A DNA stretch of 64,000 nt from an uncultured Methanospirillum sp. (GCA_964637135.1 CAZWTX010000002.1:62001-126000), one strand, 5' to 3'; positions 8,851 to 59,442 are shown, counted from the first letter of the stretch. The notes: a model not told the origin generated them from the letters alone. Made by a program: numbers and translations.

Positions 8851-9597
8851 ATGCAAAATTCACCTGCTTATAACGATCAGAGATACAAAGATGAGATAGC
8901 AGATTACTGGAATGAACGAAGCGTAACCTTTGACGAAGAGATCGGACATGGTGGTGCAGACCGGGCGGAATGTCTTCTCTGGAAGCTCCATTTCAGGGAA
9001 ATTATTGGAGAAGAACCATTGAAGATCCTTGATGTCGGAACTGGAACCGGATTTATCGGTCTGCTCCTCGCAGAACTCGGACATGAGATTACCGGGATCG
9101 ATCTTGGTGAGAAGATGCTGGAAAAAGCCAGGGCAAAAGCCGAAAAAACGGATCTGTCTGCCACGTTTCTGATCGGTGATGCTGAACGCCCGGATTTTCC
9201 GGCCGATTCCTTTGATATTATCATCTGTCGCCATGTCTACTGGACCCTCCTCGAGCCGGAAAAAACCCTTCGTTCATGGAGAGAGATTCTTCGTTCTTCC
9301 GGACGGGTAGTACTAATTGATGGGAAGAAGAATCCTCCGACCGGGGATAAACCAAAGGTCTACACCAATGTTCATGGGGGGAAGGTCTATTCAGATGAAC
9401 TGGTGGAGAAGGTCCAGGGTGTGGATGTGACCATTGCAGAGATCAGCGAGAATCTTTCCCGTTCCGGTTTTATCAATATCCGGACCGTTTCACTCGATGA
9501 TATCGCGACGTATCATTCGGAGCAGACAAAGAAGAGATCCGGGGAGAAGAGTCAGGGCGGAGAAGTCAATGTGGTGATTGCCGAGGCAGGGAAATAA
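8851..9597 (+). CDS. Class I SAM-dependent methyltransferase (UbiE/Methyltransf_11-like)
   Basis: ILDVGTGTG motif I, GIDL..ML, SFDIIICRHVYWTL. Confidence 0.9.
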   Translation: MQNSPAYNDQRYKDEIADYWNERSVTFDEEIGHGGADRAECLLWKLHFREIIGEEPLKILDVGTGTGFIGLLLAELGHEITGIDLGEKMLEKARAKAEKTDLSATFLIGDAERPDFPADSFDIIICRHVYWTLLEPEKTLRSWREILRSSGRVVLIDGKKNPPTGDKPKVYTNVHGGKVYSDELVEKVQGVDVTIAEISENLSRSGFINIRTVSLDDIATYHSEQTKKRSGEKSQGGEVNVVIAEAGK

Positions 9598-9949
9598 TTC
9601 CGACGGTCTTTCGTAGTTACGGATCTTTTCACGGTTACCATAACGAAATCCTTCCTGATCTCATTTTCAACTTTTTTACCGGTATTTCTCTTAAAATCAG
9701 GTTTCGTTCTAACCTACGCGGTCATTTTATTCACTGAGATATATAGCATAATGCAATATATAAAAAATATGTTCCTTCAGTATTAATGGTCGAAAATCGC
9801 ATAAAACATCAATATAACCGGGATTCCCTGGAGAAACCGAGAATTACATAAACTACTAATTACCTGGTGACTCTCTCACCTTTCCATCATATACTGAGTA
9901 AGAAATCTCAACTTTTTTAATTCATGCTACCAATATCCAATCAGGTATT

Positions 9950-10876
9950 ATGCTCTCCATCTCTTCACTTCAGACCTCCTTTGCCTCACGAGACGGGGCG
10001 GTGAAAGCGGTTGATTCAGTCGATCTGACCCTGAAGTCCGGTGAAAAAATAGGCCTTATCGGCGAGACCGGATGCGGAAAAACGGTTCTTGGGATGTCGG
10101 TCGTACGACTCCTGCCTCCTTCGGCAACGACTACCGGGACGATCACCTACCAGGGCAGATCGCTCTTTGGGTACTCTGAAAAAGAGATGCAGAAGGTACG
10201 GGGATCAGAGATCTCATTCATCCTCCAGAATCCGACAACCTCGTTAAACCCGCTGATCCGGGTCGGAGACCAGGTTGCAGAACGCCTCCGGGAGTATCAG
10301 GGATATTCCGGCAGCAGGGCATACCGGGAGGCCATCCGACTGATGCGTTCAGTAAACTTTCCGGATGCAGAAAAGAGGGGGACGCAGTATCCGCACGAAC
10401 TCTCCGGCGGGATGAGACAGAAGGTGATGATCGCGATGGGGATTGCCGGGGATCCGTCGCTCATCATCGCCGATGAGCCGACAAAAGCCCTCGACAAACG
10501 TAACAAGGCGGAAATACTCGGTATCCTGAACACCATCGCGGGGGACCGGTCCATGATCATGATCACCCACGATCTGACCGCGGCCGGGGAGGTTTGTGAC
10601 CGGATTGCGGTCATGTACGCCGGAGAACTTGTCGAGGAAGGTCCGGCAGAAGAGGTTCTCACGAGCCCTTCCCACCCCTACACCCGGGCATTCATTGCAG
10701 CCCATCCGAAAAAAGGGTGCAGACCGATCCCGGGATCAAGTCCGTCGCTCATATCTCCACCCTCCGGATGCCGGTTCCATCCCCGCTGTCCGGATGCATC
10801 GCCTGAATGCAGTCATAAACATCCGTTCATGAATCCGGCCGGTGATGAGAGGAGTATCAGATGCCACTGCCATTAA
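9950..10876 (+). CDS. Nickel/peptide ABC importer ATPase (DppD/NikD-like) with C-terminal Cys-rich domain
   Basis: GETGCGKT, YPHELSGGMRQ, IIADEPT, HPYT, CRFHPRC. Confidence 0.92.
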   Translation: MLSISSLQTSFASRDGAVKAVDSVDLTLKSGEKIGLIGETGCGKTVLGMSVVRLLPPSATTTGTITYQGRSLFGYSEKEMQKVRGSEISFILQNPTTSLNPLIRVGDQVAERLREYQGYSGSRAYREAIRLMRSVNFPDAEKRGTQYPHELSGGMRQKVMIAMGIAGDPSLIIADEPTKALDKRNKAEILGILNTIAGDRSMIMITHDLTAAGEVCDRIAVMYAGELVEEGPAEEVLTSPSHPYTRAFIAAHPKKGCRPIPGSSPSLISPPSGCRFHPRCPDASPECSHKHPFMNPAGDERSIRCHCH

Positions 10877-11610
10877 TTGAAGTCCAGGATCTGACGAAAG
10901 AGTATTCGTCCGGGTTTATTTCGCAGGATATCCAAAAAGCGGTTGATGGTGTATCTTTCAGGATTTACCCCGGCGAGACGCTCGGTCTTATCGGGGAGTG
11001 TGGAAGCGGAAAGACAACAATCGGAAGGCTGATTCTCAGGTTAATAGAACCGACATCAGGCCGTATCTTCTTTGACGAAACCGAGATCACCCACCTGACC
11101 CGCAGACAGATGAAACCATTCCGGCAACGGATGCAGCCCATCTTTCAGGATCCAGAGAGTTCCTTAAATCCAAGAATGAAGGTCCGGGAGAGTATCGCAG
11201 AACCCTACCGGTTATGGACCGATCTCTCATCATCTGCCATTGCAGAGAAAATCAACGGACTTATCGAGATTGTCGGACTTAATCCCGAACTCTTAAACCG
11301 CTACCCGTATCAGATGAGCGGGGGTCAGAACCAGCGGGTGGTCCTGGCACGGATCCTTGCCCTTGAACCTGAGTTTCTCGTCGCCGATGAACCGACCGGG
11401 TCGCTTGATGTCTCGGTTCAGGCGCAGATGCTTGATATCCTGATGAGATGGAAGGAGAAACATTCCCTCACGATCCTGTTCATCTCTCATGACATCGATC
11501 TCATTCAGGCATTCAGCAACCGGGCGATTGAACTTGAATCGGGAAGAATTGTCCGGGAACACTCCAGTATGTACAGCCAGTTGACACCGGGTAATCCAGT
11601 AATGACCTGA
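10861..11610 (+). CDS. Nickel/peptide ABC importer ATPase (DppF/NikE-like)
   Basis: GECGSGKTT, FQDPESSLNPR, YPYQMSGGQNQR, VADEPT. Confidence 0.92.
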   Translation: MPLPLIEVQDLTKEYSSGFISQDIQKAVDGVSFRIYPGETLGLIGECGSGKTTIGRLILRLIEPTSGRIFFDETEITHLTRRQMKPFRQRMQPIFQDPESSLNPRMKVRESIAEPYRLWTDLSSSAIAEKINGLIEIVGLNPELLNRYPYQMSGGQNQRVVLARILALEPEFLVADEPTGSLDVSVQAQMLDILMRWKEKHSLTILFISHDIDLIQAFSNRAIELESGRIVREHSSMYSQLTPGNPVMT

Positions 11611-11734
11611 TCGGGAAGCCTTTTTTTCGAGTTTGAGATGCTGTTTGAACAATTTATAATATGATTAATTTTTTTTCATCATGTTGTGTGAATTAAATGA
11701 GTATTATTAATACCAAATCTGTAGAATTTCTACT

Positions 11735-12499
11735 ATGTCTCATGGCACCTATGATCTGAAAGAAGCTCTTCGGATCGAATGGGATGGTTCTTCCGGCGGG
11801 TATGATGCCCAGCATTCACATGGTATTCAGACGCAGGAAGAACGGCAGGCATGGATCGATCTCTTCAGATCCATCACCCCTGCAGGTTCCCTGGACATAC
11901 TTGATGTCGGATGCGGGACCGGGGAGATCAGTATGGTTCTTGGGGAAATGGGTCACCGGGTAACCGGGATCGATCTCTCTAAAGGGATGCTCGACAAAGC
12001 CAGGAAAAAAGCGGGCCTGACTGATTACCGGGTTGGTTTTTTCACCGGGGATGCAGAAGCCCTGACGTTTGCTGATAACTCCTTTGACCTCGTGGTCAAC
12101 CGTCATCTCCTCTGGACGCTTCCAAGTCCTGATGCTGCTCTTAAAGAATGGAGCCGGGTTCTTCGGCCGGGAGGAAGCGTTGCCATCATCGACGGCCTGT
12201 GGAGAGATGATTCCTTCTCTGAAAAATGCCGCAGGTTTACAGGAAATCTTGGGGTCCTGCTTACTGAGCGCAAAAATCAGTTTGGAGAGTATTACTCCCC
12301 GGAGATGATCCATGCCCTTCCCCATCCGTACGGGATGACGGCGGATGTTGCTCTTGGTTATGTGAAAGATGCCGGATTTGTATCCCCGGGCATTCATCCC
12401 ATGACCACAATCATGGCAATTCAACAGAAACACATGCCCCTTTCCCGCCGGATATCATTTCATAAAACGTATTTTCTGATTACCGGAAGGAAACCGTAG
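11735..12499 (+). CDS. Class I SAM-dependent methyltransferase
   Basis: ILDVGCGTG, SFDLVVNRHLLWTLP, EWSRVLRPGG. Confidence 0.92.
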   Translation: MSHGTYDLKEALRIEWDGSSGGYDAQHSHGIQTQEERQAWIDLFRSITPAGSLDILDVGCGTGEISMVLGEMGHRVTGIDLSKGMLDKARKKAGLTDYRVGFFTGDAEALTFADNSFDLVVNRHLLWTLPSPDAALKEWSRVLRPGGSVAIIDGLWRDDSFSEKCRRFTGNLGVLLTERKNQFGEYYSPEMIHALPHPYGMTADVALGYVKDAGFVSPGIHPMTTIMAIQQKHMPLSRRISFHKTYFLITGRKP

Positions 12500-12525: not shown

Positions 12526-14127
12526 ATGAACAGCAATAGGATGAAATTCTTTATTTCCCTGGCTATCATACTCCTGATCTTCGGAGCGACCGGAACAGTC
12601 AGTGCTGCTGGCGGAAAGACACTCGCAATTGCCATTGGAACAGAACCGAGCGATCTCAATCCGATCACCAGCTCGGGACACGGGGATTATTTTGACCTCA
12701 TTAAGACCTACAGCGGTCTTATCAAGTCAGATGACAATCTCGAAACAGCACCTGACCTGGCAACATCATGGGAACAGCCTGATGAAGGAACCTTTATTTT
12801 CCATCTTCGTGACGGGGTGAAATGGCATGACGGAGAACCATTCACATCTGATGATGTCAAGTTCACGTATGACCTGATACGAAACGGAAATTATGTCTCG
12901 CTCTTCCCCCTCTCATCAGATTACTACGATGTCACAAGCATCGAGACCCCTGATAAGAACACGGTAAAATTTACGGTAAAAAACCCAATCGCACCATTCT
13001 TCGAGAGATTTGCCCTTCCGATCCTTCCAAAGCATCTTCTTGAGGGGCAGGATCTGACTACCTCGGATTACTGGCAGCATCCGGTCGGGACCGGCCCGTA
13101 TGTCTTTGATCACTGGAACAAGGGTGAAGAACTCGTGTTCACTGCGAACAAGAACTACTATGACGGAGTCCCAAAGATTGAAACCCTCAAGTTTATCATG
13201 GTGCCTGACGAGAGTGCCCGGATAAACCTCCTCAAGACCGGCGAAGTTCAGGCGATCAAAGTCGGACCAAAGAATGTTGCTTCGCTCAAGAATGAACCGG
13301 GAATACAGGTTATCTCCCATCCATCGGCGAACTGGTACTCGATTAACATGCCGTATGTCCTGCCCCAGTTCAAGGACAAGGCAGTTCACCAGGCCATTGC
13401 TCTTGCCATCGACCGGAAAGGTATTCTCGACACGATCTTTGCCGGTCAGGGCCTGATCGCCTACGGTCCGTTCAGCCCGGAGAACTGGGTATACAACTCT
13501 GCCATTGAGTATACCCAGGATCCGGAAAAGGCAAAGAAGATCCTTGACGATGCCGGGTGGAAAGTTGGAGCAGACGGAGTGCGGGAAAAAGATGGTGTAA
13601 AGCTCGAGTTCGACCTCCTCTATGTCGCCTCGAACCCGGAACGGAAAGACATTGCCATCGCGGTTGCTTCAGACCTTGATAAGATCGGGATCAAGGCAAA
13701 CCCGGTCGCAAAAGCCAACTGGGACGAGATGACGTACCAGTTGTTCCGGACAAACGCCGTGGTCATGGCCCAGGGATCCCCGTTCGATCCCGATGATTCG
13801 AATTACCGGCTGTACCATTCCAAGTATGTCACTTCTGACCGGTGGGACAACCCGATGCAGTACGTAAATCCCGAGGTAGACAAACTCCTCGACGAGGGCC
13901 GGACCACCTGGGACAGGAACGAGAGAAAAGGCATCTACCAGCAGTTCCAGAAGATTATCACCGATGACCAGCCGGCCGCTCCGATCATCTTCGGGAATTA
14001 TGTGTATGCCGTCAATGACAAGGTCACCGGAACGGTTCCCCGGAACGGTCCGCATGGCGGAGGGAACACCGGATCTATCATGGGCGATCTCTGGTGGAAT
14101 GTCGAGAAATGGGATCTTGCCGGGTGA
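12526..14127 (+). CDS. Family 5 (NikA/DppA/OppA-like) substrate-binding protein
   Basis: Signal peptide; PDLATSWE, FHLRDGVKWHDGEPFTSDDVKFT, PVGTGPY. Confidence 0.93.
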   Translation: MNSNRMKFFISLAIILLIFGATGTVSAAGGKTLAIAIGTEPSDLNPITSSGHGDYFDLIKTYSGLIKSDDNLETAPDLATSWEQPDEGTFIFHLRDGVKWHDGEPFTSDDVKFTYDLIRNGNYVSLFPLSSDYYDVTSIETPDKNTVKFTVKNPIAPFFERFALPILPKHLLEGQDLTTSDYWQHPVGTGPYVFDHWNKGEELVFTANKNYYDGVPKIETLKFIMVPDESARINLLKTGEVQAIKVGPKNVASLKNEPGIQVISHPSANWYSINMPYVLPQFKDKAVHQAIALAIDRKGILDTIFAGQGLIAYGPFSPENWVYNSAIEYTQDPEKAKKILDDAGWKVGADGVREKDGVKLEFDLLYVASNPERKDIAIAVASDLDKIGIKANPVAKANWDEMTYQLFRTNAVVMAQGSPFDPDDSNYRLYHSKYVTSDRWDNPMQYVNPEVDKLLDEGRTTWDRNERKGIYQQFQKIITDDQPAAPIIFGNYVYAVNDKVTGTVPRNGPHGGGNTGSIMGDLWWNVEKWDLAG

Positions 14128-14133
14128 TCTCTG

Positions 14134-15120
14134 GTGGATCACAGTCTCCTCCGGTATACCGGCCGGAGAGTCCTTCAGATTCCACCACTCCTGGTCGGAA
14201 TCACGATCCTCTCTTTTTTCATCTTCTATCTCTCTCCGATTGATCCGGTCATTGCCTATCTCGGACTTCCCACGGTCCAGAAGATGCCGGTCGAAGATGT
14301 AGAAAAGATCAAAGAACAACTCGGCCTGAACCAGCCGATCTATATCAGGTATGGCATCTGGCTCTCCCAGATCTCGACCGGCGATCTCGGATTTTCTCAT
14401 ATCCAGCACAGGCCGGTACTTCAGGTGATATTGGAGAAATTTCCGGCAACACTCCTTCTAACGATTCCTGCGTACGGGATGGCAATGATCCTCGCGGTCT
14501 TCTTCTCCCTTGCTGCTGCGGCACGTGAGGGATCCCGGTTTGATCGTTCCATGACCGGCATCAGTTATATCATGTATGCAACTCCTTCCTTCCTTGTTGC
14601 CCTCCTTCTGATGCTTGTCTTTGCGGTCTGGCTGGGCTGGCTTCCGGCATCGCGAATGGCTTCGGTGACCGAACCCGGAACGCTTCTTGGCGTGATCGTG
14701 GACCATATCAGGCATCTCATTCTCCCGGCAACCGCCCTCGCGGTTAGTCATTTCGCGGTGTTTTACGGTTTTCTCCGGTCCAGCCTCTCGGAATCGATGA
14801 GAGAGGATTACATCACCACGGCCCGGGCGAAAGGTCTTGATGAACGAACGATCCTGAACCGGCATGCATTCCGAAATTCGCTTCTTCCATTCATTACCCA
14901 GATCGGTCTTGCGATCCCCTACTTTATCGCCGGAAGCGTGGTCATCGAGACGATCTTTGCCTGGCCAGGGATCGGACGGCTCACCTTTGAGGCAGCAATC
15001 CGTTCTGATTACATGCTGCTCATGGGGCTGACCTTCTTTACGAGTCTCATCGTCATCCTGGGAAACCTGCTTGCAGACATCGCCTATGCAATCGTTGATC
15101 CGAGAGTCAGATATGAGTGA
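14134..15120 (+). CDS. Nickel/peptide ABC permease (DppB/NikB-like)
   Basis: EAA loop DYITTARAKGL, IETIFAWPGIG, ADIAYAIVDPRVR. Confidence 0.92.
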   Translation: MDHSLLRYTGRRVLQIPPLLVGITILSFFIFYLSPIDPVIAYLGLPTVQKMPVEDVEKIKEQLGLNQPIYIRYGIWLSQISTGDLGFSHIQHRPVLQVILEKFPATLLLTIPAYGMAMILAVFFSLAAAAREGSRFDRSMTGISYIMYATPSFLVALLLMLVFAVWLGWLPASRMASVTEPGTLLGVIVDHIRHLILPATALAVSHFAVFYGFLRSSLSESMREDYITTARAKGLDERTILNRHAFRNSLLPFITQIGLAIPYFIAGSVVIETIFAWPGIGRLTFEAAIRSDYMLLMGLTFFTSLIVILGNLLADIAYAIVDPRVRYE

Positions 15121-15958
15121 AAATATCAAATTTCTGGGAGGTTTTTATCCGAAATCACCGGGATTGATACTTCTCTGTTGTATCTGTCTCATCGCAGTAT
15201 TTGCCCCGGTGATGACACCCCATGATCCGGTGAAGGCAGATCTCTCCGAATCTGAGCAGCCCCCGTCAATCAACCACTTTTTCGGAACCGATACGCTGGG
15301 ACGCGATGTGTTTACCCGGACTCTGTATGGAACCCGAATCTCGCTTCTCGTCGGGATCTGTGCTGCGATTGTCGCCGTTGGCCTGGGTGCCTGTATCGGG
15401 ATCTCGGCCGGGTATTTCGGAAGAATCGTCGATAGCATCCTGATGCGGATCGTCGATACTATCTACTCACCGCCCGAGACGATCCTGATCATCGTCCTCG
15501 TGATGATGTTTCCACGAAGTGTTATGAGTATTATTGTTGTAATCGGGCTGACGCACTGGATGAGCACGGCTCGGATGATCAGAAGCGATACGCTCTCCCT
15601 CCGGGAACGACCGTTTGTCGAGGCTGCAGTTGCCCTCGGTGCCGGAGATCCGTACATTCTTCGCCGGCATATCTTTCCGAATCTTCTGCATGTGATTATC
15701 ATCTCGGTCACCCTGATGACCGCTCATGCGATCCTCACCGAATCGTTTCTCAGTTTTCTCGGGCTCGGAATTCCTCCCCATATCGCAAGTTGGGGTAACA
15801 TGCTCAATGAGGCTCAGCGGGATATCATGCGGGGCATCTGGTGGACCACGCTGTTTCCGGGGATCATGATTGTACTGACCGTCCTTTCCATATACCTTGT
15901 CGGCGACGAACTCAAGGAGTGGCTGGTGCCAAAGCGTGAGATGAGAAGCGAGATGTAA
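15113..15958 (+). CDS. Nickel/peptide ABC permease (DppC/NikC-like)
   Basis: HFFGTDTLGRDV, FVEAAVALGA, ESFLSFLGLG. Start taken at ATG 15113. Confidence 0.92.
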   Translation: MSENIKFLGGFYPKSPGLILLCCICLIAVFAPVMTPHDPVKADLSESEQPPSINHFFGTDTLGRDVFTRTLYGTRISLLVGICAAIVAVGLGACIGISAGYFGRIVDSILMRIVDTIYSPPETILIIVLVMMFPRSVMSIIVVIGLTHWMSTARMIRSDTLSLRERPFVEAAVALGAGDPYILRRHIFPNLLHVIIISVTLMTAHAILTESFLSFLGLGIPPHIASWGNMLNEAQRDIMRGIWWTTLFPGIMIVLTVLSIYLVGDELKEWLVPKREMRSEM

Positions 15959-17446: not shown

Positions 17447-19177
17447 CTAGATCTCCTGTGCCGCAATAAGCGATGCATACACACCATTCAATGGGAGTAA
17501 TTCCTCATGTCGTCCGGATTCGACGATCTGTCCTTCCCGGAGGACAAGTATCCGGTCGGCATGGATGATCGTGGAAAGCCGGTGGGCGATGATAAGTACG
17601 GTCCGGCCGGAGCTGAGTTCTTTCAGGGCTTCCCGGATCTCAAGTTCGGTACAGGTATCAAGCGCCGAGGTCGCTTCGTCAAGGATCAGGATCGGAGCAT
17701 TCTTGAGTACTGCCCGTGCGATCGCGATCCGCTGGCGTTCCCCGCCGGAGAGCCGGACACCACGCTCCCCGACAAGCGTCTCATATCCCCTTGGCAGAGA
17801 GGAGACAAACCCATGAATCCGTGCGATTTTGGCAGCGGTTTCTACTTCCTCATCGGTTGCATCTGCACGGCCAAGCCGGATATTCTCCCGGATTGAGGTG
17901 TTGAGGAGGAAGATATCCTGGGTCACCATCGCCACGGTATCACGGAGCCGGGAGAGGGGAAGGGTCCGGATATCATGACCTCCGATCCTGATACTGCCCG
18001 ATTCAGGATCCCAGAATCGCATGATCAGGTGGGATATTGTCGTCTTCCCTGCTCCGGTCATACCGACAATTGCCACCGTCTTCCCAACCGGAACGGTAAA
18101 CGAGACGTTTTCCAGCACCAGGGGTTCGGCAGGTCCGTACCGGAAGGAGACATCATCAACCGATATTTCCGGAGCGATGGTAGCCGGATTCTCAGGAGAC
18201 GACGGTTCCTGCACCGTCGGGATAAGATCCATCAGGTCATACAGACGTTTTGCCCCAGCAAAGGTGAGGCTGAACTGTTTCGAGATCTCCACGATGTTTG
18301 CCATCGAACTGAATCCGGCAGAGACGAAGAGAACGACGATCGGAAGCCGCAGGGGATCGATAGCCCCGGTCGCGGCGAAAAGTGACGAGACGGCCAGCAT
18401 CAGGATGACCCCCCCTGACAGGATCAGGATAAATGCTGCAGTGATGGTTCCGTTCTTGTGAACATAGACCCCGTACTCATCCTGGTACTGATTGTTCAGG
18501 TCCATGACCTGGTCGAACCGGGATTTTGATCGGGAGAAGGCAAGAATCTCCCGGATACCCTGAACACTGTCTATCAGGAAGGCATTGATCTCTCCGAGCA
18601 GTTCACGGAGTTTCTCGCCCTGTTCCTCGTTAAGAGAGAGGGCCAGCCGGGGGAGGAAGGCTATCAGGAGGGAGAGCAGGGCATATCCTCCGGCAATTAC
18701 GGGGTGAATGGTGAGGAGAGAGATAAAGACAAGGATCGGGATGACGATCGCGGTCACGAGCGGGGCGATGGTGTGGGCAAAGAAGAGTTCCAGCGTCTCA
18801 ACATTATTTCCCGCTACCGAAACGATATCCCCGGTCCGCCGCTGCATCAGGGCTGCCGGAGCAAGCGGTTCGATGGTCCGGTAAAACTGGTCACGAAGAT
18901 CGGCAAGTAACCGGTATGCACCGACATGGCAGAGATATGGACTGAGATAGCCGAAAATTCCCCGGCATACGGCGAGTACAAGAATGAACAGTCCGATCGG
19001 TATCAACTGATCAGCCGGCTCGCCTGTCCGTGCCATACGGAGGAGATCCACTCCGAGGAGGCCGATCCCGAGGGTTACCACGTACTTGAAGATCTCGGCA
19101 AGAACCCCGACGGATAATATCGGAACCTGGGGACGAAGCACTGAAAAAAGCCGAATCCAGGCACGGTCACCGTTCAT
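17447..19177 (-). CDS. Fused TMD-NBD ABC half-transporter (CydC/YbtQ/IrtB-like)
   Basis: N-terminal TMs; GMTGAGKTT, LSGGERQR, ILILDEATS. Coupled to the upstream half-transporter. Confidence 0.88.
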   Translation of the reverse strand: MNGDRAWIRLFSVLRPQVPILSVGVLAEIFKYVVTLGIGLLGVDLLRMARTGEPADQLIPIGLFILVLAVCRGIFGYLSPYLCHVGAYRLLADLRDQFYRTIEPLAPAALMQRRTGDIVSVAGNNVETLELFFAHTIAPLVTAIVIPILVFISLLTIHPVIAGGYALLSLLIAFLPRLALSLNEEQGEKLRELLGEINAFLIDSVQGIREILAFSRSKSRFDQVMDLNNQYQDEYGVYVHKNGTITAAFILILSGGVILMLAVSSLFAATGAIDPLRLPIVVLFVSAGFSSMANIVEISKQFSLTFAGAKRLYDLMDLIPTVQEPSSPENPATIAPEISVDDVSFRYGPAEPLVLENVSFTVPVGKTVAIVGMTGAGKTTISHLIMRFWDPESGSIRIGGHDIRTLPLSRLRDTVAMVTQDIFLLNTSIRENIRLGRADATDEEVETAAKIARIHGFVSSLPRGYETLVGERGVRLSGGERQRIAIARAVLKNAPILILDEATSALDTCTELEIREALKELSSGRTVLIIAHRLSTIIHADRILVLREGQIVESGRHEELLPLNGVYASLIAAQEI

Positions 19178-24335: not shown

Positions 24336-24340
24336 CCTCC

Positions 24341-47395: not shown

Positions 47396-47439
47396 GATGG
47401 CTTCACCTCGGATATTCACCTACAGAAGGAAGAAGTACC

Positions 47440-47481
47440 GTATTACGTATTTGAAATAGGTATTATTTCATAATACGTAAT
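47440..47481. promoter_or_regulatory. 17-bp inverted repeat with one bulge, overlapping a GTATTAC-N13-GTATTAT box upstream of hcgG
   Basis: ATTACGTATTTGAAATA-ggtat-TATTTCA(T)AATACGTAAT at 47442-47481, read directly. Confidence 0.65.
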
Positions 47482-47503
47482 TGAACCTACAATATGTATC
47501 TTC

Positions 47504-48729: not shown

Positions 48730-48988
48730 TGCTTCACACTCTTTTATCGCAGCCGTAATAGAATGAATTTGTATTACATTAATTAACATAGGTATTAACA
48801 TTCGTGGATGTGGCGAATGCATTTTTCAGAATATTTTTTATTAAAAATTGTAAAACCATGGAAATTGAAGAAATCAGGATAGAGGGTCGGCCTCTCCAGG
48901 GTATTGAACTTATTGGGATATATTAGCAAAATTTCATACTTTAAAGTTAAGTTTAATTATTATCGCATCTCTTGTACGTCCAGAGATT

Positions 48989-49591: not shown

Positions 49592-49631
49592 ACAGGAAAG
49601 ATCGGAGAGCGTCTGTTGCTACAACCGGAAT

Positions 49632-50396
49632 TTACCTCGGAATGGAATGATTCATTCTTTGGGAAGGAAGAAGAGAGGAGGATTCATTCCAGGGAACACC
49701 GGGATCATATACCCGGACTGATATTCCAAGGGATTCAAGAAGATCTTTCAGTGTATACAGGCCCGGGAGTTCGGTTGCATGGTGGGTGGCATCGATAACC
49801 GGAAAGCGAAGCATTTTTGCAAGGATCGCACCCGGATGGGTCAGATCCCCGGAGAGAAGAAGATCTGCCTCCCGTGAACGGGCCAACCGGATGTACCCCG
49901 TATTGAGTCCGAATCCGGATACCAGGGCAATTTTTCGGAGAACACGGTCCCGTTCACCCATCACCGTCCGGCAACCTGAAATCCGAAGAACCCGCTGCAC
50001 TTCGGTAACAAACCTTCCCATGGTCACCGGTCCGGATGCAGGTTCGCACATCCTGCCAATACCGGAATCCTCGTCAAGGACACCAGAAGGGATAAGACTA
50101 AGCCGTTCTGCAAGGGCATCGCACGCACCTCCCGGAACGATGTCCCAATTCGAATGGATGACGAATGACGGGATTACCGGCGGTTCGAGAGGGGGATGAT
50201 GGAGTACGAGGAGATCATACGCATGATAATTGATCCCGGAGACCGGCGGCGGGAGGTAATCGAGGAGCATAAGAACGGAATTAACCTGTAGTACGGCAGG
50301 ATCCGCTTTTCCGAGGTACCCGACCAGATCATTCGGTACTGCCAGCCCGGGAGGAACCCGCTCGTCGATGAGACGAAAGAGCGAGGAAGCCTGCAT
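49632..50396 (-). CDS. hcgD: FeGP cofactor biosynthesis protein HcgD (Nif3-like dinuclear metal protein)
   Basis: LHHPP, IHSNWD, VSGFGL, SGDLTH, DATHHATE. Confidence 0.92.
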   Translation of the reverse strand: MQASSLFRLIDERVPPGLAVPNDLVGYLGKADPAVLQVNSVLMLLDYLPPPVSGINYHAYDLLVLHHPPLEPPVIPSFVIHSNWDIVPGGACDALAERLSLIPSGVLDEDSGIGRMCEPASGPVTMGRFVTEVQRVLRISGCRTVMGERDRVLRKIALVSGFGLNTGYIRLARSREADLLLSGDLTHPGAILAKMLRFPVIDATHHATELPGLYTLKDLLESLGISVRVYDPGVPWNESSSLLPSQRMNHSIPR

Positions 50397-50397
50397 C

Positions 50398-51189
50398 TTA
50401 TCCCTCTCCGGGATTCCGGACTACTGAGAGGAGAGAATCAAGGTTCCTTCCGATAACCTCATCCGGATCCACCGGACAGAGGGATGAGACAATGAGTGCG
50501 GGGCGATCGAGCAGGGTAAAAAACCGGGTGGGATCCCGCTCCTGGAAAAGAATCCGCTCGAAAAAATCCAGGGACGCAGAACAGTACAGAACCCCTTCCC
50601 GCCCGAGTACGTCGCTCATCGATCGCCTGATGATCTCAATAGTAAGCGTCATTGTTCCGGAGGTCTTTGCAATGAGGCCGGTAGAAAACAGTACACCCCT
50701 ATCTGGAGCATTGAATTTTTCAGCCAGCCTGATGCACTGGCTTTTGTTTCTGATACATGCATCACTTCCGTCCGAACAGGGATCCTCAACGATGAATGAA
50801 CGGGCAGAGAACCGTTCCAGAAATGCTGCAGATATTCCCCCAAGTCCGGTCGTCTCGACGATACAATCCCATGTGCCGGTTAGTTCCTCTGGGTGGGTGG
50901 TGAATCCCGCTCCGGAAGGAACAAGGGACTGTACCTGCGGATGAATGTCGTGGATGAGTACTTCAGATCCCGGCAGCAGGAACCGGGCTACCGCAGCACC
51001 GGTCAGGTAGGATCCGAAGATCAGTGTCCGGCGGGGAAATAGTCCCCGCGTATCCAGCCAGGCGGATACCGCCTCCCCTTTTTTCTGACCAACCAGGGTC
51101 AGGATATCATATATCGTGTACTGTGAGAAGGTGGTCTGAACCGTCCGGGTGATCCCCCATTCCTGCCGGAGACCGGAAGAAACTTCCAT
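50398..51189 (-). CDS. hcgC: FeGP cofactor biosynthesis methyltransferase HcgC
   Basis: WGITRTVQT, GSYLTG, DIHP, TTGLGG, VEDP, KTSGTMTLT. Confidence 0.92.
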   Translation of the reverse strand: MEVSSGLRQEWGITRTVQTTFSQYTIYDILTLVGQKKGEAVSAWLDTRGLFPRRTLIFGSYLTGAAVARFLLPGSEVLIHDIHPQVQSLVPSGAGFTTHPEELTGTWDCIVETTGLGGISAAFLERFSARSFIVEDPCSDGSDACIRNKSQCIRLAEKFNAPDRGVLFSTGLIAKTSGTMTLTIEIIRRSMSDVLGREGVLYCSASLDFFERILFQERDPTRFFTLLDRPALIVSSLCPVDPDEVIGRNLDSLLSVVRNPGEG

Positions 51190-51671
51190 TACCGGATCCC
51201 TCCGGTAAACCCGACTCTCACCAGGGCCTCCCGCATTTCGTCACGGACGGCATCAGAAACCTCCTTCCCATGAAGACAGTTTGCCGGGGAAAGCGCAGCG
51301 GAGAGGATCCTCCCTTTTGCATCAAGAATGACGAGCATCGATCCCGAACCGGGAACACCGAGCCGTCCCCGGGCAATGACAAGATCAGAAGGAGAGAGAT
51401 CAAGAGCCATACAGGCCTTTGTCACCGCAGGCATACGGCTGAGATCGGCACAGGCGGTGGGGAGCAGCAGATGTGTTGCAGCAGGCAGGCCGAACTCGGC
51501 CAGTACCTCGTTGATGGCCAGCACTTTCCGATCGTTCCAGTTCGGAACGACAATTCGTTTTGTATTACGGATATACGCCCGTATCTCTGCAAGTTCTGCA
51601 GGCGTATCCCCTTTGCGGGTTCCTTCGACTGATTGATGATATGCTTGATAGATGGATTCTTCCAGGGTAAT
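51189..51671 (-). CDS. hcgB: FeGP cofactor guanylyltransferase HcgB (about 160 aa, apparent ATT start)
   Basis: The ORF-track 111-aa ORF extends in frame upstream: (I)TLEESIYQAYHQSVEGTRKGDTPAEL...KVLAINEVL...ADLSRMPAVTKA..DLVIARGRLGVPGSGS...SAALSP. Confidence 0.88.
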   Translation of the reverse strand: MTLEESIYQAYHQSVEGTRKGDTPAELAEIRAYIRNTKRIVVPNWNDRKVLAINEVLAEFGLPAATHLLLPTACADLSRMPAVTKACMALDLSPSDLVIARGRLGVPGSGSMLVILDAKGRILSAALSPANCLHGKEVSDAVRDEMREALVRVGFTGGIR

Positions 51672-51695
51672 GGTATCACCTCACGGGCGGTCTGC

Positions 51696-51720
51696 CCTTC
51701 TGATCCCGGTGATCAGAAGG
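51696..51720. other. Perfect 10-bp hairpin between hcgA and hcgB
   Basis: CCTTCTGATC-ccggt-GATCAGAAGG. Confidence 0.7.
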
Positions 51721-51739
51721 ATAACCTGCCTGGTATCGG

Positions 51740-52834
51740 TTAATCGGTGAACAGTTCCGAACCCGGGCGAAGGCCGGGAACCGGTATGGCGGGTTTGAGA
51801 CGCCTGGTCAGAAACGGCCGGTCTGACCCCGGCAGCTCCCTGAACTCTGATACCAGCCCCATCTCTTTGATTGCACCAAGAACTCCCCGGAGCGTCCCGT
51901 ATACCGGCGATCCAACCCCTTTGATCTGCAGGGGGTAGGAATCGGGGATGACCGTTGCAAGGTTGTCTGCTCCGGCTGCCAGGGAGAATTTCACATTATC
52001 CGGACCGATAGTCGGTGTCGGAACGGTGATGCGGATTTCAGGATAGAGAATCCGGGTAATGGCAATGGTCTTCATCTGTTCGAGGATGGAGCAGGCGGGA
52101 TGGTTTTCCATCGGTGTTCCCAGGTACGGATTAAAACCCATGATTGGGATCTCACCGAGTGTGGAAAAGGAACGGAGGAACTGGAGATGACGGATACGAT
52201 CGAGGGAGGATTCTCCAACACCGATAAGGAGCCCGGAAGATAATTCAATCCCTTTTGAGGAGATAAGTTCACAGGTGGCAATCCTCTGCCTGAGCGTCTC
52301 ACCCGGTTTCAGGTACGAGAAGAGGGATTCGTTGGTTGTCTCAAGATTACAGCAAACGGTTTCTGTATCGACCGCTGCGATCTCGTCCAGGGTATCTGCC
52401 GTGATATCGGTGCCGACATTGATGATCAATTCCAGGGAGGTATTCTCTTTCACGATGCGTGCAGCAGTAACAGCGTGGGTACCCTGGTGGCCGTGTGCGC
52501 CGGAACAGCTGACCCGGGGAATCCCGGATTGTTCGATTATCCGGGCAGCCTGCACTATTTCCTCCCCAGTTTTATAAAAAGGGGAGTAATACCCGTTCTC
52601 CGAGGTCCCTGCAGCAAATCCACAATATTTACATTTCGGAGTGACGGCACACTGGTTCGTGATATGGATTGTTGATGTGAGTTTGATGTGGGGATGGTAC
52701 TGATTCCTGATATCACAAGCGGTCTCTACCAGGGAGACCAGTTCATCCTGACCGGTTATACCAAAGAGTTCAAGAAGATCGTGCCGGTCAGGCGGAGAAC
52801 CGGATTGGATTTTGCGTATAATTTTTTGTATCAT
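51740..52834 (-). CDS. hcgA: Radical SAM enzyme HcgA (HmdB)
   Basis: Atypical CX5CX2C motif (CAVTPKCKYC) characteristic of HcgA; RVSCSGAHG, CCNLET, GADNLATV. Confidence 0.93.
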   Translation of the reverse strand: MIQKIIRKIQSGSPPDRHDLLELFGITGQDELVSLVETACDIRNQYHPHIKLTSTIHITNQCAVTPKCKYCGFAAGTSENGYYSPFYKTGEEIVQAARIIEQSGIPRVSCSGAHGHQGTHAVTAARIVKENTSLELIINVGTDITADTLDEIAAVDTETVCCNLETTNESLFSYLKPGETLRQRIATCELISSKGIELSSGLLIGVGESSLDRIRHLQFLRSFSTLGEIPIMGFNPYLGTPMENHPACSILEQMKTIAITRILYPEIRITVPTPTIGPDNVKFSLAAGADNLATVIPDSYPLQIKGVGSPVYGTLRGVLGAIKEMGLVSEFRELPGSDRPFLTRRLKPAIPVPGLRPGSELFTD

Positions 52835-53029
52835 AGTGTCACCAATTTTTACAAAATTTAAATTTATCCATATTTCGTATTATCTTAAAAATATTTCTAA
52901 ACCCTCGTTTTTCTAATTATCGAGGGGAACACCCACCTATAAAAATGATCCATAAACGCATTTTTTTCATTTTTGGTTGGTTAAAAGCAGATTCAGATCA
53001 GAAGAGATATATCAATCTGGGACAATTCA

Positions 53030-53057
53030 TTGTTACTACTCTTATCATTGGTAACAC
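53030..53057. promoter_or_regulatory. NikR-like operator upstream of hmd
   Basis: TTGTTAC-N14-GTAACAC, followed by a second palindrome CACATATT-gg-AATATGTG (53055-53072). Confidence 0.6.
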
Positions 53058-53106
53058 ATATTGGAATATGTGCATGATCGGGTAGACAACCTATTGGAAT
53101 GTCATT

Positions 53107-54165
53107 ATGAAAGTTGCAATACTCGGCGCAGGATGTTACAGGACACATGCTGCTGCCGGAATCACAAACTTTGCACGGGCTTGTGCAGTTGCTGAGAAAG
53201 TAAAAAAACCAGAGATCTCGATGACCCATTCAACCATGATTATGGGAGCCGAACTGAAGGAACTGGCAGGGATCAAGGATATTACGATATCTGACCCGAT
53301 ATTTGACAATCAGTTCACCGTAATCGACGACTTTGCCTATGAGGATGTGATGAAAGCTCATAAGGCAGGCCAGCCGGAGAGCATTATGCCCAAGATCCGT
53401 GAGAAGGTAAAAGCGGTTGCAAAAGACCTCCCAAAACCACCAAAGGGAGCCATACATTTCACTCACCCGGAGAAACTCGGATTCAAGATTACCACAGATG
53501 ACAAGGAAGCAGTTGCCGATGCAGACTGGATCATCACCTGGCTTCCGAAAGGTGATATGCAGAAGGGAATCATCGAGAAATTTGCAGGAAATATCAAGGA
53601 AGGGGCGATCATCACCCATGCCTGTACGATTCCCACAACAAAGTTCTACGGGATCTTTGAAGAACTCAACCTGATCAATTCGAAGAAGGTCCAAGTCTCG
53701 TCGTACCATCCGGGAGCTGTTCCGGAGATGAAAGGCCAGGCATTCATCTCGGAAGGCTACGCCTCTGAGGCGACTATTAACAAGCTCTTTGAGATGGGAA
53801 CCACCGCACGGGGCGAGGCATTCAAACTGCCGGCAGAACTTCTCGGACCGGTATGTGATATGTGTGCCGCCCTGACGGCAATCACCTATGCCGGCCTGCT
53901 TACCTACCGGGATTCAGTCATGAATGTACTCGGTGCCCCGGCCGGGTTCACCCAGATGATGGCCAGGGAATCCCTCGAACAGGTCAATGCGCTCATGAAC
54001 AAGGTCGGGATCAAGAACCTGGAAGAACACCTGGATCCGGGAGTATTCCTCGGAACAGCTGACTCCATGAATTTCGGAGCCGTCGGAGAAGTCCTGCCGA
54101 CTGTTCTCGAGGTACTGGGTAAGCGGAAGGGAAAATCCTGTACACCTGACGGCATGTGTAAATAA
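53107..54165 (+). CDS. hmd: [Fe]-hydrogenase, H2-forming methylene-H4MPT dehydrogenase
   Basis: MKVAILGAGCYRTHAAAGITNFARA, TWLPKG, Fe-ligand region THACTIPT, SYHPGAVPEMKGQ, GPVCDMC, GTADSMNFG. Confidence 0.97.
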   Translation: MKVAILGAGCYRTHAAAGITNFARACAVAEKVKKPEISMTHSTMIMGAELKELAGIKDITISDPIFDNQFTVIDDFAYEDVMKAHKAGQPESIMPKIREKVKAVAKDLPKPPKGAIHFTHPEKLGFKITTDDKEAVADADWIITWLPKGDMQKGIIEKFAGNIKEGAIITHACTIPTTKFYGIFEELNLINSKKVQVSSYHPGAVPEMKGQAFISEGYASEATINKLFEMGTTARGEAFKLPAELLGPVCDMCAALTAITYAGLLTYRDSVMNVLGAPAGFTQMMARESLEQVNALMNKVGIKNLEEHLDPGVFLGTADSMNFGAVGEVLPTVLEVLGKRKGKSCTPDGMCK

Positions 54166-56081: not shown

Positions 56082-56108
56082 TTATTACGAATTTTAATAT
56101 CGTGATAA
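56082..56108. promoter_or_regulatory. NikR-like palindrome upstream of the mcrD paralogue
   Basis: TTATTAC-N13-GTGATAA. Confidence 0.5.
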
Positions 56109-56940: not shown

Positions 56941-57750
56941 TCAGTTCATCTCCCCGGCCGGCTTTTTTCCAGACACGATGCAGTACGGAACATCATATGA
57001 CAGTCTGTTGATCCTGGGCATATACCGTCGCTGAATCTCCTGGATGTGAATCAGATCCTCATGCGAGAGACTGACAAACCCATTCCGCGTAAGACAGGAT
57101 CCTATCTGATCCATCGTCGGCCCTGAATAGTACGGAAGTGCCTTCTTAAGATCGTCATCATAAAATTTCGACTTCTGTCTTCCTTTCTCGGTCAGGAACG
57201 TGTACGCACCACTGATCCATCGCCCAATCTGTTGCCTGATACCTGAATGATACCAGTTCCCGTCGATAACCAGAAGTGTTCCGTCAGGTTTCAGGACCCG
57301 TTTCCATTCCTGGATCGCTTTGTCCGGATGGGGAAGGGTCCAGAAGAGATGACGGTTGAGGATCACATCCATGGAACTGTCAGGCCATGAGAGCGATTCC
57401 GCATCCCCCATCTCGAACTGGATAGAATAATCCAGGGATAATGCCTTGTTCCTCGCTTTAGCCAGCATCTGTTCGGAGAGATCCACCCCGGTCACCTGAT
57501 GGCCCATTCCGGCAAGAAGGATACTCATCTCCCCGGTACCACAGCCGACATCGAGGATCCGCATCGAATCTCCGGGGATCTTCTGCCTGAGAAGATCAAT
57601 CCATGCCTCTTTCTCTTCATCGGTCTGGATCCCATGGGCATGATGGGTATCATACTGCTGCGAGGAGACATCCCATCTCTTCCGGATCTTCTCCTTGATC
57701 TCTGCATCCATGACAGAACCCGGCCCGTCTCCCGGCATGGTTTCAGCCAT
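56941..57750 (-). CDS. Class I SAM-dependent methyltransferase (paralogue of 11735..12499)
   Basis: WDVSSQQYDTHHAHG, ILDVGCGTG, NRHLFWTLP, EWKRVLKP. Confidence 0.92.
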   Translation of the reverse strand: MAETMPGDGPGSVMDAEIKEKIRKRWDVSSQQYDTHHAHGIQTDEEKEAWIDLLRQKIPGDSMRILDVGCGTGEMSILLAGMGHQVTGVDLSEQMLAKARNKALSLDYSIQFEMGDAESLSWPDSSMDVILNRHLFWTLPHPDKAIQEWKRVLKPDGTLLVIDGNWYHSGIRQQIGRWISGAYTFLTEKGRQKSKFYDDDLKKALPYYSGPTMDQIGSCLTRNGFVSLSHEDLIHIQEIQRRYMPRINRLSYDVPYCIVSGKKPAGEMN

Positions 57751-57751
57751 G

Positions 57752-58624
57752 TTATTCTGCCTCCCACATTCCAGGCTGTCTTACCGAAGGATCCCACCAG
57801 ACCACCGCAGTCTTATACGTTCTCATAATCCGCCTGCCTTCGGGGAGATCCATCGCGGTTTTATCGAGATGTCGCCTGATCTTCTCTTCTACCTCCGGAG
57901 TGAATTCCATATAGATCGAGTAAAAAACCCGGTACATGGTCATCAGGCGGTCGATAGACCGGACACTTGACGACGAGATGATCTCGACATGGGGAATACG
58001 GCCATTCTGGTAGAGAATGTTGTAGATATACGGGTACTCGGGGTACTGGGGATATGGCGTATCACCCATGATGCTCTGCCATAGCATTAGTTCCTCACCG
58101 CCGGCGGATCCAAATCCGGCAGCAATACAGCAATGGCCCCGGGATACCTCCTCCATCCTCCGGACCTGGTTCATGATATCGCGAAACATCCAGATCACCG
58201 TGGAGGTGATAACCAGATCAAAAGAGCGGGAGTGCTTTTTGGTATCAACATCCTGCCAGATTGCAGGGATAATGGTGTAGTTTGTAACTCCGGCCTCGGC
58301 AGCATTCTCATGGATTCTGGCAATCATTCCTTCCGCAGGTTCGATTGCCGTATATTGTTCTGCATAGGGAGCGATAGGAATCACAAAGGTTCCCGGACCG
58401 GACCCGATCTCGGCAACCGCCCCGTTCTGCCGGAGAATCTTCCGGCGGAGCAGGAGATCAGCAACTTTACGTCCGAACTCATATTCGTTCGACCGACGCG
58501 CTTCAGAGTAATCCTCCGAGCGCTCTGTCCAGTCATCGACCTGGTAATCACGCTGCATAGTCCGGGACCGGGCATCATAGAGCTCTTCCCATACCTGTTC
58601 CCAGTCGATGACAGACCCGCTCAT
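57752..58624 (-). CDS. Class I SAM-dependent methyltransferase
   Basis: DWEQVW..DDWTERSEDY, AEIGSGPG, IEPAEGM, FDLV. Confidence 0.88.
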   Translation of the reverse strand: MSGSVIDWEQVWEELYDARSRTMQRDYQVDDWTERSEDYSEARRSNEYEFGRKVADLLLRRKILRQNGAVAEIGSGPGTFVIPIAPYAEQYTAIEPAEGMIARIHENAAEAGVTNYTIIPAIWQDVDTKKHSRSFDLVITSTVIWMFRDIMNQVRRMEEVSRGHCCIAAGFGSAGGEELMLWQSIMGDTPYPQYPEYPYIYNILYQNGRIPHVEIISSSSVRSIDRLMTMYRVFYSIYMEFTPEVEEKIRRHLDKTAMDLPEGRRIMRTYKTAVVWWDPSVRQPGMWEAE

Positions 58625-59442
58625 GACCCCACCTTCCACCACATCAGTCCCATCAGTCCTGAACCAGAATACATGTCGTCCACCAGCCGGGAGAGAACAT
58701 ATTCGCTGATGATCGAACGGTCCTCTTCAGTAACCGGATGGTACTTCTGGACTACCAGTTCCATAGCGGTGAGAATGGATTCTTTCGATCTTCTGGTGGT
58801 GTACGGGATAACTTCAACATTCGGGGGCATATCATGCTGGTTGAAGAGGTTGAAAAGCGTGTGAAACTGGTCAAACTCCGGTTCGGAAACACCGAGGCGG
58901 GAATAGAGATCGACCGTATCTGCATCGGAGCCAAACCCGCCGGCGATAACACAACAACCACGGGAGGCCTGGTGCATCCGTTTCACCTGCTGTAATATAT
59001 CCGGAAAATGCCAGAGCGAGTGGCAACAGAGAACCAGATCATATCTTTTTTCGTATCCGGAAATGTCGATGTTCTGCCAGGTACTCTGGATGGAGGTAAT
59101 ATTCATCAGGTTTTCATTCCGGGCATTTCTTTCCAGCTCCTGGATCATCTGGAACGCCGGTTCAATGGCAGTCACCTGCCGGGCAGACCGGGCAAACGGA
59201 ATGGTCAAGGCCCCGGGTCCGGAACCGATGTCAAGAACTTGGGAATCAGGTGAGAATATTCCCTGCTTGTGGCAGAATGAACATATCTTCTCGCCGTGTT
59301 CAAACCGGCTGTTTCGGACCATGTCGGTATAGTCTGCAGCCCGCTTCTCCCAGTAATCCACTGATGTCCGGGTAGCCATCTCGCGGATTGAATTCTCCCA
59401 GAGATTATCCCACCGGATTGTTTCTGTCCTGTTCATGATCAT
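58621..59442 (-). CDS. Class I SAM-dependent methyltransferase
   Basis: YWEKRAADY, VLDIGSGPG, IEPAFQM, YDLV. Confidence 0.9.
   Translation of the reverse strand: MIMNRTETIRWDNLWENSIREMATRTSVDYWEKRAADYTDMVRNSRFEHGEKICSFCHKQGIFSPDSQVLDIGSGPGALTIPFARSARQVTAIEPAFQMIQELERNARNENLMNITSIQSTWQNIDISGYEKRYDLVLCCHSLWHFPDILQQVKRMHQASRGCCVIAGGFGSDADTVDLYSRLGVSEPEFDQFHTLFNLFNQHDMPPNVEVIPYTTRRSKESILTAMELVVQKYHPVTEEDRSIISEYVLSRLVDDMYSGSGLMGLMWWKVGS

Follow-up and report, generated by a model that had tools for sequence, protein, structure and literature searches.

In several bacterial metal-uptake systems, a methyltransferase is encoded alongside the genes for import. In Staphylococcus, Spm (SAUSA300_1977), which is encoded downstream of fhuD1 and repressed by Fur, methylates and inactivates pyochelin, as described in the accessible text of that report (PMC10592502). 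The prrA-modD-yc73-fepC cluster of extraintestinal and O157/O145 E. coli is characterised, in the accessible part of its source, as 'possibly mediating iron uptake', and its methyltransferase is assigned no function there (PMC12928451). The Cnt opine systems (staphylopine, pseudopaline, yersinopine and bacillopaline) use Opp or FecCD importers, and some clusters include extra methyltransferases whose role the available portion of the source leaves unassigned (PMC7438024). The available text on the nickel-binding protein NikZ mentions no methyltransferase (bioRxiv 10.1101/2022.10.03.510666). The present work examines a stretch of 64,000 nucleotides from an uncultured Methanospirillum sp. (the whole stretch is referred to as the window; C2:62001-126000, with feature coordinates counted from the window start), in which seven predicted S-adenosylmethionine (SAM) methyltransferases of three families, A, B and C, are encoded in and around modules for metal import.

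The host is probably a Methanospirillum-like hydrogenotrophic methanogen, because the nearest named homologues of one of these enzymes (11735; genes are named after their first coordinate) come from Methanospirillum, with 64-65% identity, and because hmd, hcg, frhD and an mcrD-like gene lie in the window. The genome is 97.7% complete. The import modules belong to an island that is larger than the window and covers ~113 kb (C2 ~40-153 kb). Handles beginning with G and L denote genomes and loci, respectively.

Methyltransferase genes and their importer neighbours

The seven genes are as follows.

8851..9597 (+): family A, divergent long-branch subclade; divergent from a class III binding-protein gene and upstream of oppD
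11735..12499 (+): family A, directly 5' of the gene for a NikZ-like binding protein
35365..36219 (+): family B, directly 3' of the gene for a MolA-like binding protein
41592..42770 (-): family C (Methyltransf_2), last gene in a binding protein-FecCD-FecE operon
56941..57750 (-): family A, end of a B-B-A chain divergent from a Nik/Opp operon
57752..58642 (-): family B, middle of the B-B-A chain
58621..59442 (-): family B, 111 bp from the divergent oppD

All seven open reading frames (ORFs) were found as predicted, each with matches to class I methyltransferase Pfams, and 41592 does close a FecCD/E operon. In the entire genome, there are 9 paralogues of family A, all at C2 40-129 kb and thus all within the island, 8 of family B and 3 of family C. 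A gene for a binding protein or permease lies no more than 1.5 kb away from 8/9 family A, 4/8 family B and 2/3 family C genes; for family B, this rises to 7/8 within 3 kb. The background at 1.5 kb is 3/22 for other class I methyltransferases and 57/2376 for other genes. The adjacency of these methyltransferases to importers is far above chance.

The original prediction had each of the seven adjoining or inside an import module. This holds for five, which touch an importer gene; 57752 and 56941 do not do so directly. They take second and third place in a run of three methyltransferase genes that diverges from oppD, and 56941 is located 3.6 kb from the binding-protein gene. Gene 8851 is divergent from the neighbouring binding-protein gene 7626-8783 (-) rather than in line with it. 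Gene 11735 lies, as had been noted, between the ATPase and binding-protein genes; its placement inside that operon probably does not hold, as it has an AT-rich leader of its own, of 124 bp. Because this leader carries the best NikR-like palindrome of the island (see below), 11735 probably heads a transcription unit together with the binding-protein gene. The treatment of the three families as a single system was rejected: A and B share the SAM core only and pair with different classes of binding protein.

The island holds all 4 family 5 (Nik/Opp) binding proteins of the genome. The copies of B and C outside it mostly lie beside class III binding proteins and near FmdE, DUF364 or MoeA, and one family C gene is found within a formylmethanofuran dehydrogenase cluster. 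One locus outside the island (L009:5430-12556) combines a binding protein, two methyltransferases, MoeA, TetR and an LCM/TcmP-type methyltransferase, the latter of Spm's family. A further locus (L005:3228-11490) encodes a binding protein, a radical SAM enzyme, a family B enzyme, an APH phosphotransferase, another methyltransferase, DUF364 and FmdE; from its gene content, it looks like an import-and-modify set.

Conservation in archaea and bacteria

Counts in other genomes are lower bounds, with only 10-17 candidates scored per genome. Family A was found in at least 26/151 genomes of the class and in at least 59/251 genomes of a phylum sample, family B in at least 84/201 and family C in at least 14/151. 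Using the best match per genome with 1.5-kb flanks, 25 plus 23 new loci (of 58) were annotated for A, 29 of 83 for B, and 14 loci from 13 genomes for C. Binding-protein or permease genes were present within these flanks at 12/25 and 16/23 loci for A (28/48 together), 14/29 for B and 10/14 for C; if ATP-binding cassette (ABC) ATPases are counted too, the figures become 16/25 and 23/23, 14/29 and 12/14. In most of 20 archaeal loci viewed more widely, a six-gene cassette recurs, consisting of the methyltransferase, a binding protein, two permeases and two ATPases, with the methyltransferase often sitting between binding protein and permease. The conserved cassettes contain no synthase and no exporter; a major facilitator superfamily (MFS) gene is nearby at only a few loci (window 16135, L100, L116, L249). 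A contig scan with a single protein returned one distant locus, where no importer genes were seen.

Some individual arrangements deserve mention. Family A genes directly precede nifH-like and nifDK-like genes (L104:8868-13249; L060:2-2280), with a convergent nikR in G045; judged by gene order, these neighbours may form an importer-linked nitrogenase-like reductase. At L067:1495-3141, a FecE-type ABC ATPase is fused to a family B domain, the sole such fusion seen. In P0241 and P0242, family B is fused to a second methyltransferase domain, one being annotated as an arsenite methyltransferase.

The pairing also occurs in gut Lachnospiraceae and in alphaproteobacteria, down to a four-gene unit of importer plus methyltransferase. 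Longer homologues are dominated by a Blautia methyltransferase-AstE/AspA deacylase-methyltransferase fusion, in which family A domains flank the deacylase on both sides. Nik/Opp genes lie within 3 kb of it at 61/80 metagenome loci, followed by cbiMQ in the loci scanned; since these loci are 82-100% identical, they amount to about one event. One of them (L117:8001-17699) comprises the fusion, a LysR gene, a Nik/Opp importer and cbiMQ, and at some loci DJ-1/PfpI is inserted. Judging from their family, the AstE/AspA partners (amide/ester hydrolases) would fit a breakdown of the ligand. Plasmid records gave 158 matches. Seven of the eight regions examined have a methyltransferase, a binding protein, FecCD and an ATPase without a synthase, two of the seven being one locus in two strains; the Halobaculum plasmid region has no importer. 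In S. meliloti, a family A copy ends a cobalamin-riboswitch operon on pSymB that also encodes a binding protein, a FecCD permease and an ATPase. The gene starts three bases after that of the ATPase, and is intact in LMB1 and frameshifted in ABS7. By position, we take this operon to be the cobalt importer CbtJKL.

For family B, alignment with the E. coli methyltransferase encoded between an ATPase gene and modD is full-length and extends over 259 columns (probability 99.8, E 1e-29). On this profile evidence, family B is the methyltransferase family of the prrA-modD-yc73-fepC cluster. Taken together, the homologues of the seven are strongly enriched beside metal importers in archaea as well as bacteria, as the original prediction entailed.

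Matching of enzyme type and binding-protein type

Among 37 adjacent pairs of methyltransferase and family 5 binding protein (two rows share one binding protein), the distances within the two protein sets correlate (Spearman 0.43, reached in 0/2000 permutations), and nearest neighbours agree in 28/37. Paralogous cassettes within one genome sort by type. The class III neighbours of family A fall into the island-specific group in 15/17 rows and those of B and C into the MolA-like group in 15/17 rows, with a few loci counted twice.

Which metal: NikR-like sites and binding proteins

The inverted repeat recognised by NikR spans 27-28 bp and resembles GTGTTAC-N13/14-GTAACAC or GTATGAT-N13/14-ATCATAC, according to the accessible part of the source (PMC545781). 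Candidate sites in the window are listed here.

7276..7303: NikR-like site upstream of binding-protein gene 6153-7259
9780..9807: NikR-like site upstream of oppD 9950
11686..11713: NikR-like palindrome (7-14-7), top island score, 21 bases 5' of 11735
22971..22998: NikR-like site in the gap separating fecCD from the divergent binding-protein gene
36477..36504: NikR-like site upstream of binding-protein gene 36568; a second candidate, by the literature matrix, at 36417
53030..53057: NikR-like palindrome 5' of hmd
56082..56108: weaker NikR-like site, in front of the mcrD-like gene

A literature matrix, built from the two published NikR half-sites only, was applied with the 95th percentile of 1008 other leaders as threshold. 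It was exceeded by 9/44 island leaders compared with 51/1008 others, and 30 local shuffles gave no more than 4. The best sites precede 11735 (11686) and hmd (53030), whose product rises under nickel limitation in Methanothermobacter. With a trained matrix, 11/31 cassette leaders in other genomes and 11/105 other leaders score at least 9; its seeds come partly from the island, and an external matrix was built on sites picked by it, so that both are partly circular. Near-perfect GTATTA-N16-TAATAC palindromes precede family A genes in three other genomes, and a cbiM leader ranks among the top 'other' NikR-like sites. Unseeded counting of palindromes in island leaders gave nothing clear for exact dyads, while with one mismatch TATTA-N16 and ATAAC-N15 ranked among AT-rich dyads; the case for the motif is accordingly built on the literature matrix and the other genomes. 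There is one nikR copy in this genome, and elsewhere nikR occurs beside A, B and C loci. By these sequence criteria, the island palindromes are likely NikR sites. A further NikR-like site (47440-47466) lies inside a long inverted repeat between hcgF and hcgG and could also be a hairpin. In Methanothermobacter under nickel limitation, transporters, CobN1 and NikR1 rise, as reported in the accessible text (PMC12350162). No riboswitch at the gathering threshold was found in the window, L002 or L003.

The binding proteins provide a second line of evidence. The closest solved relatives of the family 5 protein 12526 are NikZ of Campylobacter jejuni (CjNikZ) and CcNikZ-II (4OET, 8EFZ; E 2e-77, 9e-69). 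It retains the equivalents of His26 and His481, two of the three nickel-binding histidines; the double histidine near the C terminus (the HH prong of NikZ) is absent from 12526, where GPHG replaces GHHG. Proline in place of the first prong histidine would leave more of the nickel co-ordination sphere to an outside ligand. The MolA-like protein 34215 matches HI1472 (3PSA) over its C-terminal half only, and Helicobacter nickel binders with E 6e-14. Families B and C have MolA-like binders together with ModD, FmdE, DUF364 and MoeA as neighbours, which suggests molybdenum or tungsten. Leaders of MolA-like binding-protein genes share no convincing dyad.

Properties of the methyltransferases

From their domain matches, the seven proteins are class I (Rossmann-fold) SAM methyltransferases with the GxGxG SAM motif. 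A and B can be aligned with each other only over a SAM core of 134 columns (profile alignment). None of the seven reaches the curated NCBIfam cut-offs for UbiE/MenG, BioC, UbiG, Tam, ChlM, ArsM or CpaM; best scores are 45-80 bits compared with cut-offs of 103-575, and 57752 and 41592 have no match at E<=1e-8. None has an LCM (PF04072) domain at E<=1e-5; another gene of the genome does (L009:11588-12556). An AlphaFold model of 11735 (mean predicted local distance difference test score 91.9) has UbiG as best fold match (Z 22.1, root-mean-square deviation 2.5, 189 residues aligned); Rv0560c (Z 20.5) and TmtA (Z 18.9), methyltransferases that detoxify thiols or heterocycles, lie inside a continuum of unrelated class I enzymes. 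A family missing from these fold and sequence match lists is not thereby excluded. The enzymes are probably cytoplasmic, because, unlike the binding proteins, they carry no signal or membrane segment by crude hydropathy.

The motifs described for family A are present (IGHG, QHSHG and HHAHG; RHVYWTL, RHLLWTL and RHLFWTL). The N-terminal W..R(A/S)..(Y/F) element reported for family B is there as well; it does not mark a subfamily, as profile alignment shows a single N-terminal element, W..(S/A)..(Y/F), to be common to both families. In 79 diverse family A proteins, Trp127 and Thr128 occur in 79/79, and Trp16, Trp40 and Arg/Lys123 are nearly invariant. His29 is found in 58/79 (104/108 in a closer set) and His124 in 57/79. 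The predicted histidine pairs exist in part: two loop histidines occur in only 27/79, and 8851 has a single one. On these numbers, paired histidines were rejected as a definition of family A, and they are doubtful as a metal site. In the main clades, a single loop histidine may contact substrate or metal. Residues 161-178 of 11735 correspond to a basic amphipathic insert helix that is present in 74/79 family A proteins (median hydrophobic moment 0.48, net charge +2) and missing in 8851; it is a possible membrane anchor.

Proposed function and alternatives

We give about an even chance to the reading that the enzymes act in the cytoplasm on the organic ligand with which the metal was imported, and methylate it. 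NikR would bind the likely NikR sites. Under nickel shortage, each binding protein would capture Ni(II) held by a different environmental chelator, and the paired enzyme would use SAM to methylate one of that chelator's metal-binding groups, whether a carboxylate, an amine or a thiol. Methylation would weaken the hold of the chelator on its metal and render it harmless once freed. Nine divergent paralogues would cover several chelators that the cell does not make, and an equivalent role at MolA-like (molybdate/tungstate-type) or other importers is probable for families B and C. The disarming of an imported chelator, one of two functions originally suggested, thus stands as the best reading, with Spm as a published analogue in another methyltransferase family; the substrate is deduced from gene context. 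Possible in our view, if on the doubtful side, is the wider proposition that family A constitutes a previously undescribed cross-domain family of 'metallophore-stripping' methyltransferases, a sixth subunit of nickel/cobalt chelate importers. Methanogens would then pirate their neighbours' nickelophores, of nicotianamine type and others, each type of binding protein having a methyltransferase to match, and in this Methanospirillum the NikR-run island of 113 kb would couple nine strippers to Hmd and mcr.

Several observations weigh against ligand methylation. Six orphan family A genes form one clade (100/98), and since 3/5 of the orphan-gene genomes tested have no family 5 binding protein, family A can persist without a family 5 importer. 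Family B has no importer within 1.5 kb at 15/29 loci. Fold and PDB searches gave only generic class I matches (14-27% identity), among which carboxyl-, N-, O- and S-methyltransferases rank equally. The histidine proposed to hold the metal is missing from about a quarter of family A. The division between nickel and molybdenum/tungsten is not clean, because 3/12 B/C leaders outside the island pass the NikR-like threshold. The co-divergence of enzymes and binding proteins would also follow from cassettes transferred as blocks, and related genomes are non-independent; as block inheritance alone could yield it, the pairing shows a lasting partnership and not a chemistry. In the accessible text on Spm, pyochelin methylation is independent of the neighbouring Fhu importer (PMC10592502).

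The enzymes might instead make or tailor a chelator of the cell's own, such as an N-methylated nicotianamine-type or amino-acid-derived nickelophore, or catalyse a non-methyl SAM reaction, with the importer retrieving the product. Methyltransferases in opine-zincophore clusters have been proposed as tailoring enzymes, in the part of that source available (PMC7438024). Nicotianamine synthase (NAS) was found in 20/251 genomes, often as tandem genes in nickel energy-coupling factor (ECF) loci; 12/20 of these genomes also carry family A, which adjoins NAS in 3/20 regions (17 genomes). In nickel ECF loci of G245 and G348, a family A gene immediately precedes tandem NAS genes on the same strand, and in G248 one lies near four NAS genes; this counts against ligand methylation and favours tailoring there. 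The three NAS-adjacent members all fall into one 12-member clade (98/98) with no loop histidine, to which none of the nine paralogues of this genome belongs, and 46/58 family A genomes have no NAS match. Neither the seven proteins nor the genome contain NAS (PF03059), CntM is absent among the window and flank genes scanned, and Pfam reveals no gene for a non-ribosomal peptide synthetase or an NRPS-independent siderophore (NIS) synthetase in the window and flanking loci. For NAS, NRPS and NIS, this agrees with the earlier failure to recognise such genes. The four- and six-gene cassettes likewise come without synthase and exporter. A SAM-derived chelator made by these enzymes, the other function originally offered, is hence unsupported for this genome, and we regard synthesis or tailoring as unlikely. 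As a separate observation, tandem NAS genes lie within cbiM/cbiQ nickel ECF loci of methanogen-related genomes (L227-L236, L245-L246), two of which have nikR.

Action on the transport machine is less probable again. In that case, the methyl acceptor would be a subunit of the transporter, or the proteins would bind SAM and dock at the membrane as receivers to which the ATPase hands over the complex. The ATPase-family B fusion (L067), the frequent position of the gene directly after that of the ATPase, and the amphipathic, positively charged insert helix would all suit such a role. However, methyltransferase type tracks the external binding protein, which is beyond its reach, gene order around the ATPases varies, and a search for longer family B proteins gave two, neither with an ATPase domain. 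ChlM methylates a carboxyl group beside a chelatase, and in a comparable tetrapyrrole salvage, imported F430, corrinoid or heme would be carboxyl-methylated so that a CobN-like protein removes or exchanges the metal; we consider this very unlikely. It draws on the island cobN with its ChlI/VWA partners, the mcrD-like gene by the B-B-A chain, the mcr genes and the many class III binding proteins, on family A near cobN in G230 and before the nifH/nifDK-like genes of G045, on the cobalamin riboswitch heading the S. meliloti operon, and on the rise of CobN1 in nickel-limited Methanothermobacter, given in the accessible text (PMC12350162). Yet most archaeal family A cassettes use family 5 binding proteins closest to nickel or small-ligand binders, family A is common in aerobic alphaproteobacteria that have no F430, the ChlM model scores far under its cut-off, and cobN and mcrD are outside the conserved cassette. 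That the enzymes only share a promoter with metal importers, as co-regulated passengers whose substrate belongs to housekeeping or general detoxification, is already disfavoured and has hardly any probability left: the orphan clade without a Nik/Opp importer, half of the family B loci elsewhere and the Halobaculum match would accord with it, whereas the coupling, with three importer architectures in all, is found repeatedly across archaea, Lachnospiraceae and alphaproteobacteria, within operons where the enzyme gene separates those of binding protein and permease. In most genomes searched, moreover, no family A member turned up (59/251 positive), unlike a housekeeping gene. Methylation of the imported ligand is favoured over all four because the minimal units consist of importer and enzyme without synthase or exporter, and because hydrolases recur.

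Further features of the island

Beyond the genes and sites already given, the window contains the following.

6153..8783 (-): two class III (Peripla_BP_2) binding proteins, 6153-7259 and 7626-8783, island-specific group (Pfam)
9950..11610 (+): OppD/OppF-type ATPases (Pfam)
12526..15958 (+): NikZ-like family 5 binding protein and two permeases (Pfam, PDB match)
17447..24335 (mixed): heterodimeric ABC pair, FecE, FecCD (-), class III binding protein (+)
24546..26898 (mixed): CobW-family GTPase (-), ModD (+; above the TIGR01334 cut-off)
34215..35303 (+): MolA-like class III binding protein (3PSA/HI1472, E 1.6e-32)
36568..41675 (+): second Nik/Opp-type importer operon (Pfam)
42739..45689 (-): binding protein, FecCD, FecE (Pfam)
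45878..54165 (mixed): hcg cofactor genes (-), [Fe]-hydrogenase hmd (+), a nickel-free hydrogenase (Pfam)
59554..63943 (+): third Nik/Opp-type importer operon (Pfam)

The third Nik/Opp operon runs past the window with oppC, a fourth binding protein and a further family A gene. The 636-aa fecCD-fecE ORF (42739-44649) is probably an assembly artefact, because a run of 10 N lies at 43649-43658. The ABC pair in 17447..24335 is presumably YbtPQ/CydDC-like. The block of ABC pair, fecE and fecCD is present twice (window 17447-22916 and L002:7261-12913); the copies match each other with E 3e-211 for FecCD, and their 274-aa ATPases have identical Pfam scores. In the L002 copy, a family A gene lies between fecCD and its binding-protein gene. 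An MFS gene is convergent at 16135-17337. HcgC (50398-51189, -), known to function in the synthesis of the iron-guanylylpyridinol (FeGP) cofactor, brings the SAM methyltransferases of the window to eight, and a stand-alone mcrD paralogue is located at 56130-56675 (+).

Across its full length, the island includes many class III binding proteins and FecCD permeases, two heterodimeric ABC pairs, cobW, modD, hmd-hcg, DUF4198, mcrA/mcrD/mcrB, and cobN with ChlI/VWA partners. The genes mcrA, mcrD and mcrB are at L003:10413-14728, with a NikR-like site upstream of mcrB (C2:139818). The island end (C2 143.8-152.5 kb; L003:18819-L004:7502) carries cobN, ChlI-like and VWA genes, an ABC-2 pair and a class III binding protein, a block with a possible role in removing metal from tetrapyrroles.

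Significance and comparison with known systems

Two questions stand behind these findings: by what means methanogens acquire nickel where the habitat is sulfidic, and how any cell frees imported Ni(II) or Co(II) from a redox-inert chelate. Iron is commonly released by reduction, a route that is unavailable for Ni(II) and Co(II) chelates. A SAM-dependent stripping step, if true, would be a general answer, and a directly testable one, because each enzyme comes with a binding protein expected to reveal the ligand. It would also give functions to anonymous genes in well-studied loci, such as the yc73-type gene of E. coli, the gene that closes the riboswitch operon of S. meliloti and the Blautia deacylase fusion, and would bear on how biogas reactors are dosed with trace metals. 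The NikR-like site upstream of mcrB makes it conceivable that nickel controls an mcr operon. A literature search, mainly outside subscription papers and supplements, found no paper on the function of families A and B or on their link to NikR.

Compared with NikZ, 12526 preserves the His26 and His481 equivalents and differs in the proline at the first prong position. The Cnt systems differ in that this genome has no CntL/NAS, no CntM among the scanned window and flank genes, and no conserved exporter. The S. meliloti operon resembles the present cassettes in joining an importer with a terminal, intact family A gene; it is associated with cobalt and a riboswitch rather than nickel and NikR. The E. 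coli cluster, with its order of binding protein, permease, ATPase, methyltransferase, modD and TonB receptor, shares a family B homologue and modD with the window, although modD is here not adjacent to a family B gene, and the identification of yc73 is by position. Closest in concept is Spm: there as here, a SAM methyltransferase is encoded with a metal-chelate binding protein under a metal repressor (here through predicted NikR-like sites). Spm is TcmP-like and concerned with iron, whereas the seven proteins have no LCM/TcmP Pfam and are associated with nickel (A) or MolA-like binders (B, C). By analogy, the enzymes described here would work like Spm, yet they belong to another methyltransferase family.

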